From Candidatus Uhrbacteria bacterium (lineage in GTDB: Bacteria > Patescibacteriota > Patescibacteriia > UBA9934), in assembly GCA_963822405.1 (NCBI GenBank), contig CAWGHH010000001.1:151296-215295 (forward strand): 64,000 nt of DNA, given 5' to 3'. A model generated the notes under the pieces. It searched no databases. It was not told where the DNA came from and was given only the letters and a program-made list of their open reading frames with translations. Position numbers and translations under genes: made by a program. Positions 25,078 through 27,113 of the stretch are shown in pieces (within the stretch, counting starts at the first letter, position 1; each line of letters starts with the position of its first letter).

Positions 25078-26430
25078 ATGGCATCAGTCAATTGGCAAAA
25101 CTTCGGCTTAAAGAAGAACCCGTACGACACTCTGCCACTTTTGGAGGGTGGAGATATCCCGATTGAAGGTGCTTTTGTTGGACGAGTAACCGAGCGAAAA
25201 ATAATTGATAGCGTTCTCGAGTCCGGTGATCGAGGATGCCTTATTATTGCTGGGAACGTTGGAGTAGGAAAAACTACGCTTACAAATTTTGTAAAATTCC
25301 GTAGGAAGAATGTTTTAGACCGAAAACCTCTTTTTTCATCCAGACGTGAGATAGAGGCTTCGGCTGAGTCTCTGAATAAGCGTGCATTTCTTCTTGAAAT
25401 TATCGGCTCAGTTCTTCGTGAGATTCAACTTCTCGAACCGGATCTCGTTCGATCCGATGCATTACTCAAAAAACTGCACGCCGTTGTTGATCTTACTCAA
25501 ACCGTGGAACTTTCAGGGGGCGTATCTGCTTTTAGTTTCGGTATCAACGGAGGAAAGGCTGAGTCGACGGTGCAACCATTCCATTTACCTACAGCGACCA
25601 TCGAGGGATATTTTCGTGACTTGATTGAGTTCATCCGCATTCATCGCATTGCTGATCGCGAACATTGCGGACTAATTGTGCACATGAATAATTTTGATGT
25701 TGTCATGAAGGAGGACAATAACAAGAAATTGGTATTAAAATTTTTTAATGAAATCCGAGATGTTTTACAGATTCCGCATGTATATTTTATTTTTTTGGGA
25801 CCAAAGAACTTTTTTCGAGAAACTGTCGGAAGGGAACCGAGGGTGCGCGCGGTATTTCACCAGTCACCAATTGTGCTTGAGCCGCTGACAAAGATGGAGA
25901 TCGTTGACGCATTGGATAAGCGGATGTCGGCCATCCAATCAGAAAATGTTTCTCATTACATAAAGCCTTTTACCGACGAAGTGGTATTCGAGCTTTACGA
26001 TCTTTATGAGGGGGATATCCGCTCAGTATTGGGGGCATTGTTAGATATTACGGCTGAATTGGGCGATCGCGTCACTGAACCACTAGGCGTGAATAAAGCG
26101 ATATATTTGTTGAGTCGTGAACGGTGGAGACAGATTGAAGGTGTCTTTACCTCAGAACAGAAGAAGGTATTAGAATTTATCGTTAGAAAAGGTGAAGCTA
26201 TTACTCAAAATGAAATTGTCACGTGTCTTGGAAAGACTCAGGGAAATGTGGCTTATTATTATTTTGGACCACTGAAGGATTCCGGAGTGATTGAGGAGGT
26301 GGAACGTCGTGGAAAGCAAAAATATTGGTATTTGACGAAGGAATTTTCTAGTTTGAAATATTTACTAACTGCGGAGGTCCACGTACAAGAGGATATTGAA
26401 GAGAAAATCCAACAGGCAAGATTATTTTAG
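25078..26430 (+). CDS. P-loop NTPase with C-terminal winged-helix (Orc1/Cdc6-like architecture)
   Basis: Walker A AGNVGVGKTT; Walker-B-like hhhhD at LIVHMNNFD; C-terminal wHTH TQNEIVTCLGKTQGNVAYYYFGPLKDSGVIEE. Confidence 0.55.
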   Translation: MASVNWQNFGLKKNPYDTLPLLEGGDIPIEGAFVGRVTERKIIDSVLESGDRGCLIIAGNVGVGKTTLTNFVKFRRKNVLDRKPLFSSRREIEASAESLNKRAFLLEIIGSVLREIQLLEPDLVRSDALLKKLHAVVDLTQTVELSGGVSAFSFGINGGKAESTVQPFHLPTATIEGYFRDLIEFIRIHRIADREHCGLIVHMNNFDVVMKEDNNKKLVLKFFNEIRDVLQIPHVYFIFLGPKNFFRETVGREPRVRAVFHQSPIVLEPLTKMEIVDALDKRMSAIQSENVSHYIKPFTDEVVFELYDLYEGDIRSVLGALLDITAELGDRVTEPLGVNKAIYLLSRERWRQIEGVFTSEQKKVLEFIVRKGEAITQNEIVTCLGKTQGNVAYYYFGPLKDSGVIEEVERRGKQKYWYLTKEFSSLKYLLTAEVHVQEDIEEKIQQARLF

Positions 26431-26474
26431 CCCCGCTTGCGACTTTCAGCATTCAACCTTAAACTGGTGGCAGT

Positions 26475-27113
26475 ATGTCTGAATTCGGCGAAGGTGAGAA
26501 AAAAGAGCCGGTTTTTTCTGATCCCGACGTTCCGGCGGAGGTCATGGCTTGGGCCGTTGATTTTGAGCGACGTTCGAAATCTGTGCCACTGTTGGATGAT
26601 GTAGCTCGTAATGCTTTGTATGACGAAGAGGATGAAAAGATGAAAGACTCATCATGCGAGCTCGCCCTCGCGTTAGTGAGAAAAAGCAGCGACTATCTCA
26701 TTGATAGAGCCAGGGATGCCGTTCGACTAAACCAACAGAAACTTGAATATCCCTCGGCGGCTCCTAAGGCTCAAGAGATTCTCCGCCTGTCTCCAGAAGA
26801 ACTTGTAGCGTCTCGATTGAACTTACTAATAGATGAAGAGGGTACGATTAGAGCCTTAGCCGAGCTCGGCGGACACCACTGGGCGCGGGACAGCAGAGAG
26901 CGAACGGGGTCGGGGACTATCAAGAATGCTATCGAGCAACTCCGTGGTGGCAGTGAGATCGAACCAATTTCCGCTGGGTATCTTCGTTTCTACACGGCTA
27001 AAGATGGCAGTATGCAGATTTCTCTCAGTCACATTCCCGGCGATTCGCGTGATCAGTCCTATAATTGGACCATTGTAAAAGCAAAAGAATTAGGCTTTGG
27101 AATCCATCGATAA
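26475..27113 (+). CDS. hypothetical protein (212 aa), acidic N-terminus; co-oriented partner of the P-loop NTPase
   Basis: ORF with 44-nt spacing; no known motif. Confidence 0.45.
   Translation: MSEFGEGEKKEPVFSDPDVPAEVMAWAVDFERRSKSVPLLDDVARNALYDEEDEKMKDSSCELALALVRKSSDYLIDRARDAVRLNQQKLEYPSAAPKAQEILRLSPEELVASRLNLLIDEEGTIRALAELGGHHWARDSRERTGSGTIKNAIEQLRGGSEIEPISAGYLRFYTAKDGSMQISLSHIPGDSRDQSYNWTIVKAKELGFGIHR

Follow-up and report, generated by a model that had tools for sequence, protein, structure and literature searches.

We analyzed a 64,000-nt stretch of DNA from a Candidatus Uhrbacteria genome (assembly GCA_963822405.1, contig CAWGHH010000001.1, positions 151,296 to 215,295), hereafter the window, and focused on a plus-strand gene at 25078-26430 together with the DNA upstream of it. 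We classified its 450-aa product as a member of a new protein family, restricted to the Patescibacteria (candidate phyla radiation, CPR), of an Orc/Cdc6-type kind that joins an AAA+ ATPase to a C-terminal winged helix-turn-helix (wHTH) and is accompanied by a candidate DNA target. In the reading that we hold to be the probable one, gene and upstream DNA form a stand-alone, self-regulated and horizontally spread cassette encoding a site-specific DNA-binding protein that works as an ATP switch. What is new is the family together with its control region, made up of a palindrome and a DnaA-box-like element. Initiators of the Orc1/Cdc6 type are considered a feature of archaea and eukaryotes, and bacteria use DnaA. 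A bacterial family that brings together, within about 1.5 kb, the Orc1/Cdc6 fold, a sharp candidate DNA target and frequently a DnaA box could reveal a new class of ATP-switch regulators and, at the upper end, an exchange of initiators and origins in ultra-small bacteria, the replication control of which is, to our knowledge, essentially unstudied.

A first-pass annotation of the window had described the 450-aa open reading frame (ORF) and a 212-aa ORF lying 44 nt downstream of it as a candidate defence or regulatory two-gene module, and had named an Orc1/Cdc6-type initiator-like regulator as the alternative. Our ORF calls recovered both genes with the lengths and spacing described, each with an ATG start. 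Overall, the observations of that annotation were confirmed and its interpretation is partly supported, the Orc1/Cdc6-type regulator being the closer reading.

The 450-aa protein and its family

The Walker A motif and the Walker-B-like block already noted in the 450-aa protein are both present. The former, AGNVGVGKTT (residues 58-67), is intact (GNVGVGKT), and the latter, GLIVHMNNFD (residues 198-207, with IVHMNN-FD as Walker B at 199-207), reads Asn-Asn in place of the acidic pair. In an alignment of 47 core family members (alignment A1, mean column identity 61%), N204 and N205 are invariant, as are G59, G62-T66, H202, F206, R255, G312, D313 and R315. The Walker B pattern h-h-h-H-h-[N/D]-N-h-[D/E] is kept across a wider family of 25-33% identity, and the pair itself is [N/D]-N, rarely DD, in about 100 distant relatives. 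The Asn-Asn pair suggests a protein that would bind ATP, hydrolyse it slowly and act as a switch. The invariant motifs start near the N-terminus with W6..G10-L11..P15 (INWQQFGLKxNPYDTxPLxEGG), followed by GxVGVGKT, and further include FSxRREIEA, H202-x-N204-N205-F206, FFNEIRD, FLGP, R255 (RVKSIF) and G312-D313-x-R315. The last of these corresponds to the sensor-2 motif GDIR (residues 312-315), whose R315 is also kept almost throughout the wider family, and R255, at the box VII position, is a candidate arginine finger. Both the sensor-2 and the box VII positions were placed by motif order and predicted secondary structure.

We then modelled the protein with AlphaFold2 (AF2) on alignment A1, with a predicted local distance difference test score (pLDDT) of 84.3 and a predicted template-modelling score (pTM) of 0.74. 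The model consists of an AAA+ core, a lid and a C-terminal winged helix; the latter, together with weak matches to HTH profiles, bears out the wHTH of the first-pass annotation. The winged helix spans residues ~355-420 (helices 359-371, 377-384 and 388-401, hairpin 405-419). The AAA+ core begins after about 35 residues, and the chain stops about 30 residues past the winged helix, with a single helix. Using Foldseek against the PDB, the top matches of the model were the archaeal Orc1/Cdc6 proteins 2qby_A, 1fnn_A, 1w5t_A and 2v1u_A, which aligned full-length over 450-484 columns (E 1.7e-9 to 2.5e-8, probability 1.00). Eukaryotic ORC/Cdc6 subunits ranked below them, and RuvB, clamp loaders, Apaf-1 and RdrA lower still. 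A fold search of BFVD returned generic AAA+ matches only, and a search of PDB sequences with the family profile just wHTH proteins and P-loop noise.

Judged by the model, the protein appears to be shaped, and would work, like Orc1/Cdc6, but it lies outside that group by curated score and by Walker B. The AAA+ base, the lid and the C-terminal winged helix are shared, as are an extended N-terminal segment before Walker A, a helical insertion before beta-3, the box VII Arg and a GDxR sensor-2. The conserved motifs also follow the order found in Orc1/Cdc6, from the N-terminal segment through Walker A, the helical insertion and Walker B to FLGP-x-N, R-x-K-S and, in the lid, GDxR. In contrast, similarity in sequence is marginal, with 20.3 bits against TIGR02928 (orc1/cdc6; cut-off 181.3) and 14.6 bits against NF001625 (cut-off 501); TIGR02928 was matched at E <= 0.01 by 15 of the 47 members. 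The Walker B pair of the family is NN and not DE, and the winged helix is closest, by its weak profile matches, to transcription-factor domains of the ArsR/MarR/TrmB/Lrs14 type and not to Cdc6_C. Finally, the host is a CPR bacterium that has DnaA, the distribution is rare, and the window displays no origin-type skew.

No curated cut-off of Pfam or NCBIfam was reached by the 450-aa protein. The best P-loop matches in Pfam, all under the gathering cut-offs, were to STAND NTPases, namely AAA_16 (PF13191; 22.7 bits versus 32.6) and nSTAND1 (PF20703); nSTAND3 (15.6 versus 27.2) and NB-ARC (14.4 versus 23.5) scored lower. Among the 47 members, such sub-threshold matches were found for AAA_16 in 40, for nSTAND1 in 22, for AAA_22 in 16 and for ATPase_2 in 11. 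The order of NTPase, helical domain and winged helix and the sporadic distribution also recall STAND proteins. However, Pfam scans and the AF2 model revealed neither a C-terminal repeat sensor (TPR/WD40/LRR) nor an N-terminal effector, and the protein has the classical AAA+ sensor-2 Arg. It is not a STAND NTPase. ATPase_2 proteins (PF01637, often with a DUF234 wHTH) and ExeA/AAA_22-like proteins have a similar length of ~450 aa and an N-terminal motif before Walker A, and the FGLxxNP[YF] motif of the family resembles, as we take it, the ExeA N-terminus. Here too all matches were under cut-off, with no match to DUF234, and we know of no ATPase_2 or ExeA/AAA_22-like family that has FSxRREIEA, HxNNFD and FFNEIRD with a linked palindrome. 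Those families are likewise uncharacterised.

To place the protein among known sequences, we searched 5.8 billion protein clusters. The single query retrieved at least 190 full-length homologue clusters (90% identity), which puts the ORF far past chance, and a profile retrieved 227. Codon usage in its own frame is host-like (+0.20 bits/codon, and +0.21 for the 212-aa ORF), all other frames being negative. The 120 homologues listed are 431-484 aa long, with 45-52% identity and a query coverage of 94-100%, and every named one among them belongs to a Patescibacteria lineage. An exhaustive phmmer search of 1.84 billion 50%-identity representatives gave 457 clusters at E <= 1e-3, about 20 of which are full-length core members (39-50% identity), the rest forming the wider 25-33% family (400-545 aa). 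In GTDB, searched at one genome per species with two family-specific peptide patterns, we found 45 relatives in 44 loci. Compared with the 11,567 high-quality Patescibacteriota genomes of R232 (preprint 10.64898/2026.05.13.725050), this corresponds to a prevalence well under 1-2%. The distribution is thus sporadic and not universal; universal conservation of the pair in fixed synteny, which the first-pass annotation had taken as the mark against its proposal, was not observed. Of the sporadic, co-conserved pair expected there, the sporadic part holds for the ATPase and the co-conservation does not. In the literature on Cdc6/Orc1 in CPR/Patescibacteria, we found no description of the family.

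The lineages concerned are Microgenomates (Davies- and Roizmanbacteria), Parcubacteria (Yonath-, Staskawicz-, Moran-, Falkow- and Kerfeldbacteria) and Peregrinibacteria/Peribacteria, together with metagenome-assembled genomes (MAGs) labelled Saccharibacteria and one contig binned as Nanoarchaeota. This 2.7-kb contig (L042, JAUYGA010000144.1) and five MAGs labelled "uncultured Gammaproteobacteria" or "Bdellovibrionales" (L008, L020, L025, L033 and L039) are probably mis-binned or mis-labelled. Because the labels of several third-party annotation (TPA) MAGs ("Gammaproteobacteria", "Saccharibacteria") look unreliable, we did not use incongruence between tree and taxonomy as proof of horizontal gene transfer (HGT) and relied on synteny and GC content.

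Two loci, L022 and L028, are syntenic, and between them the family protein is 80% identical, compared to 70% for RuvB and 45-65% for the other neighbours; an identity above that of RuvB and the neighbours indicates strong purifying selection. The GC content of the gene was under that of its flanking genes in all 33 loci compared (mean -6.5 points, P = 5e-7), and its third-codon-position GC (GC3) was under that of the flanks in 25 of 29. In the window, the gene has 42.2% GC, whereas the long genes all fall within 45.3-53.5%, and it ranks last in GC3 among 15 genes. Taken together, patchy spread, conservation and low GC point to an accessory gene that was transferred horizontally and then kept by selection.

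The palindromic control region

The 450-aa gene is preceded by a divergent intergenic region of 298 nt (24780-25077) that has 31.9% GC, compared to ~48% for the window, and that is bordered on its other side by a minus-strand FGase/rpiB/rpe gene block. The first-pass annotation had placed both ORFs behind a long AT-rich divergent region, which holds for the 450-aa gene, and had overlooked the conserved palindromic control region inside it. An alignment of 300-nt upstream regions from 37 loci revealed a palindrome with the consensus (A)CTATATATATAG(A)AA, whose end precedes the ATG by 0-30 nt. Its representative in the window is a perfect 12-bp palindrome, CTATATATATAG (halves CTATAT and ATATAG), at 25062-25073, 4 nt before the ATG. 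This site A is a candidate proximal binding site or operator of the cassette.

The exact 12-mer is present in a single copy in the window. It occurs in 17 of 52 loci, once in each and always 0-30 nt before the ATG of the family gene, compared with a chance expectation of 0.02 copies in the 455 kb of these loci (first-order Markov model). When up to one mismatch was allowed, 26 of the 30 palindrome copies lay at the cassette, and a 27th (L027) lay 5 nt ahead of a family gene cut off by the contig end and for that reason not called as an ORF. Outside the cassette, a few near-perfect copies were observed, namely 125 nt downstream of a family gene (L013, 7478-7489), 30 nt upstream of a gene for a 329-aa protein (L028, 10515-10526) and, with one mismatch, at window positions 23893-23904, inside the 5' end of rpiB. 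These copies may be extra targets or chance occurrences.

The hexamers ATATAG and CTATAT occur at 7.2 per kb upstream of the gene, compared with 0.75 per kb in the other intergenic DNA of the same loci, and they fall into three positional clusters: site C, in forward orientation at -102 to -132, site B, also forward, at -31 to -53, and the palindrome A, which is 92-102 nt away from C. Per locus there are a single distal and a single proximal half-site, both forward, in addition to the palindrome, and neither tandem repeats nor a tandem iteron array were found. An 8-bp inverted repeat is made up of site B and the 5' half of A, ~16 nt apart. In alignment A5, 73.7% of the B/A cells pair, compared with 68.6 +/- 1.4 after shuffling (0/500) and 22-59% after sliding. 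Mirrored substitutions that keep the symmetry were observed in three loci, L022 (GGTTCTAG/CTAGAACC), L015 and L021, and in one subgroup the B/A stem grows to 12-16 bp. In most loci, B is preceded, at a distance of 0-12 nt, by a -10-like hexamer (TAAAAT, TAATAT or TTTAAT), so that B and A would coincide with the transcription start or follow it closely. Site C, of the same sequence, lies outside the transcript, which speaks for recognition of the sites as DNA. In the window, the consensus half-site ACATATAG is represented by a degenerate site B, GTAACTAG, at 25038-25045.

A DnaA-box-like 9-mer (TGTGGATAA/TTATCCACA, at most one mismatch) was found in 21 of the 37 upstream regions, compared with 4.1 expected (P = 1.5e-11). 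Of these 9-mers, 15 share the TGTGGATAA orientation and lie between -81 and -135, for the most part immediately 5' to site C; six are perfect. The window has the 9-mer TTATGCACA at 24984-24992, 94 nt before the ATG, which fits TTATNCACA and is in the opposite orientation to most loci. Across CPR classes, the cis-region keeps its linkage to the gene.

A relative of 30% identity (P0145, 507 aa, locus L051) has a different upstream motif, AAGGAATATATGTAATATTT, present three times (L051, 7745-7961); the proximal pair forms a 22-nt inverted repeat ~40 nt before the ATG and two more copies lie upstream. A different motif in a like design suggests that protein and site co-evolve. From these upstream sequences, the pattern further suggests that the whole superfamily may be autoregulated by lineage-specific palindromes. 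We also scanned metagenomes for ATATAG-N14-18-CTATATATATAG, and a family gene adjoined one (L114) among the 92 matches listed. Given the size of the database, this pattern is too simple and AT-rich for the scan to be informative on other targets.

Gene neighbourhood, proposed mechanism and rival readings

To analyze the genomic context, we called the ORFs in 47 loci and clustered all the neighbours; no neighbour family recurs beside the ATPase gene in these loci. Within two genes on either side, Pfam identified scattered housekeeping genes (RuvB, TsaE, FtsH, GroEL, EF-Tu, PolA, aminoacyl-tRNA synthetases and S7), a minority of the neighbours being restriction-modification (RM), toxin-antitoxin (TA) or transposase genes. 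In the complete 1.34-Mb Peregrinibacteria genome CP064962.1 (L052, 6513-9356), the family gene lies 132 nt downstream of dnaB and the palindrome abuts its ATG. The dnaB of this genome was called as two ORFs, of 130 aa (DnaB N-terminal) and 319 aa (DnaB_C), and a MazEF pair and a class II aminoacyl-tRNA synthetase gene lie in the vicinity.

In the self-regulated cassette that we favour, the protein would use its winged helix to bind the ATATAG half-sites, forming a dimer or oligomer in an ATP-dependent manner, and the AAA+ module would serve as a slow ATP switch and not as a motor. Winged helices of the ArsR/MarR/TrmB type bind palindromes. Binding at B and A, at or just past the -10-like hexamer, would repress the expression of the gene itself, and DnaA bound beside the sites would couple the cassette to the replication cycle of the host. 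The unit moved horizontally among CPR lineages would consist of the gene and ~130 bp of control DNA.

Several observations weigh against this proposal. The link between the protein and the palindrome consists of position and conservation, and the Walker B assignment follows motif position and predicted secondary structure and not a residue-level superposition. In the window, site A is the only one intact, B being degenerate, C not recognisable and the DnaA box inverted. The B/A repeat would also form a hairpin in the RNA of the 5' untranslated region, and the signal could be partly at the RNA level. Moreover, in one subgroup the "DnaA box" overlaps a possible -35 element and may be partly promoter sequence.

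The gene and its upstream DNA could instead be an origin with its initiator, a minimal replicon with ORB- or iteron-like sites that would serve either as a secondary origin on the chromosome or to replicate an integrating episome, an explanation that we consider rather unlikely. Its strength is the layout, with a DnaA box, site C, ~95 nt of AT-rich DNA and the inverted B/A sites abutting the would-be initiator gene, which resembles Orc1/Cdc6 genes in lying beside inverted candidate binding sites that flank AT-rich DNA. Archaeal oriC-cdc6 units and the iteron plasmids pSC101 and F have this layout, and in such iteron replicons (pSC101 repA, F repE) a winged-helix initiator autoregulates through an inverted-repeat operator at the start of its own gene. 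By analogy, the cassette would offer the same elements, a DnaA box, one or more initiator sites, an AT-rich stretch and an inverted-repeat operator at the initiator gene. The Orc1/Cdc6 fold, the horizontal spread of gene and cis-region as a unit and the replication genes adjoining in some loci (dnaB in L052, polA in L023 and L034, and ruvB and uvrD beside others) fit as well, and the window locus is a strand-switch point.

However, GC skew is positive on both sides of 25 kb, ~+0.04 under the minus-strand genes and ~+0.11 under the plus-strand genes, so there is no leading/lagging switch, and skew of the same sign argues against a dominant active origin in the window genome. The upstream neighbour is co-directional in most loci. 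Unlike iteron replicons, the cassette has three sites only, with no tandem array of at least three direct iterons, and encodes an AAA+ protein and not a WH-WH Rep; its winged helix is of the transcription-factor type and not Cdc6_C. Terminal overlaps were found in none of the 11 whole-contig loci checked (no circular contigs), and the flanks are chromosomal housekeeping genes. By tblastn, plasmid and phage collections gave no match to the family, and neither these collections nor the 11 contigs gave a sign of an autonomous element; IMG/VR contains one relative, 22% identical, in a high-GC provirus. That CPR genomes carry dnaA-linked origins (PMC12102498) also counts against an origin at this locus. 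A mobile version, in which the initiator uses its own inverted sites around the AT-rich stretch together with the DnaA of the host to fire or control replication, the cassette serving as an accessory chromosomal origin or as the module of an as yet unseen CPR episome, appears improbable to us; if true, it would be the first case of a bacterium using an initiator architecture of archaeal type.

We give a similarly low chance to a single-gene anti-phage or abortive-infection NTPase (Orc/Cdc6-STAND) that would sense foreign DNA through the winged helix under tight autorepression. The sporadic, HGT-like distribution, the low GC and the sub-threshold AAA_16 and nSTAND1 matches would suit such a gene; RM genes lie within two genes in ~6 of 45 loci, including L006, L029 and L007, and TA genes and transposases lie near it in L052 and L004. 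Nevertheless, the protein has no effector domain and no C-terminal sensor repeats. PADLOC-DB 2.0, run on the query, the 47 core members and 82 distant members, gave matches confined to the wHTH (PDC-S27, residues 360-425, and the Csa3, CARF and SoFic models), and PHROGs gave nothing specific for the 450-aa protein. In addition, conservation beyond that of RuvB is very high for a defence gene, and most neighbours are housekeeping genes. The defence role proposed in the first-pass annotation thus found no direct evidence.

The same RM loci bear on a further explanation, an RM controller that, like a C-protein, would bind to a palindromic box in front of its own gene and set the timing of res expression; we regard it as very unlikely. 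An autoregulatory palindrome is a hallmark of C-proteins. In L006 (3706-10112) and L029 (2832-9512), the family gene is located between a type III mod gene (724 and 700 aa, N6_N4_Mtase, 63% identical between the two loci) and res, and in L007 (338-4468) res follows the family gene and the mod side is off the contig. The res products of the three loci (892-895 aa, ResIII) are 68-73% identical and the family proteins 52-58%, and the MAG labels differ. This arrangement was found in only ~3 of 45 loci, however, the window ATPase has no adjoining RM gene, and a 450-aa AAA+ protein is unlike the ~80-aa C-proteins.

Even less probable is a housekeeping replication or chromosome factor, such as a helicase loader or a DnaA regulator, inherited vertically in CPR: high conservation, uniform length, the DnaA box, dnaB beside the gene in L052 and the synteny kept between L022 and L028 would agree with it, but ~200 clusters and ~45 GTDB species compared with more than 11,000 CPR genomes, the variable context and the atypical GC do not. 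The least credible explanation is a joint action of the ATPase and the acidic 212-aa protein encoded downstream of it, since, although the two ORFs are co-directional across a 44-nt gap and the second looks coding, the 212-aa protein is its own sole match among the 5.8 billion clusters, a related downstream gene is present in 0 of the 47 loci, and the 212-aa ORF abuts ileS with a GC content like that of the host genome and unlike that of the ATPase gene. As the 212-aa protein is an orphan and no neighbour recurs, the two-gene module was rejected. This removes a false lead, because the "ATPase plus partner" defence module of the first-pass annotation does not exist.

Other features of the window

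The 212-aa ORF (26475-27113, plus strand) is an unrelated orphan and not a conserved partner of the ATPase. As annotated at first, its product has an acidic N-terminus and no known domains; it gave no family match in Pfam, NCBIfam, PADLOC or PHROGs, and a single-sequence AF2 model was uninformative (pLDDT 43.7). The ORF is probably a real lineage-specific gene co-transcribed with ileS (27123-29993), which encodes a 956-aa isoleucyl-tRNA synthetase (IleRS) and begins 9 nt after it.

Gene orientation switches sharply at 24.8-25.1 kb (window about 5900-42600): ~19 kb on the left contain almost exclusively minus-strand genes, and plus-strand genes predominate in ~17 kb on the right. The intergenic region also contains a leftward sigma-70-like promoter, TTGCCA-17-TAAACT (24931-24903, minus strand). 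About 60 nt past it and before FGase/rpiB/rpe, a 12-bp hairpin is followed by a T-run (24841-24805, minus strand). Together (24805-24931) they look like a leader, an attenuator or a small RNA, and Rfam gave no match for this element.

Three islands of the window, at 1-4900, 30000-31150 and 47000-49000, have a high GC content (57-61%, compared with ~48% for the window). The first comprises several small minus-strand ORFs, including one for a zinc-ribbon protein (3337-3576), and the second a 363-aa ORF. In Pfam, the eight island ORFs scanned gave no significant match, the zinc-ribbon ORF being matched at a sub-threshold level only. These islands may be foreign DNA or assembly chimeras.

At 31486-32007, the window encodes a 173-aa SET-domain protein (PF00856, E = 2.8e-13), in a CPR-like genome. 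ARAGORN detected two tRNA-Ile genes with the anticodon TAT, at 31338-31411 and 58657-58733, the first of which scores merely 40.5 bits in Rfam. A UAU-reading tRNA-Ile is an uncommon bacterial route to decode AUA, and the 956-aa IleRS of the same window has a DUF5915 C-terminal domain.

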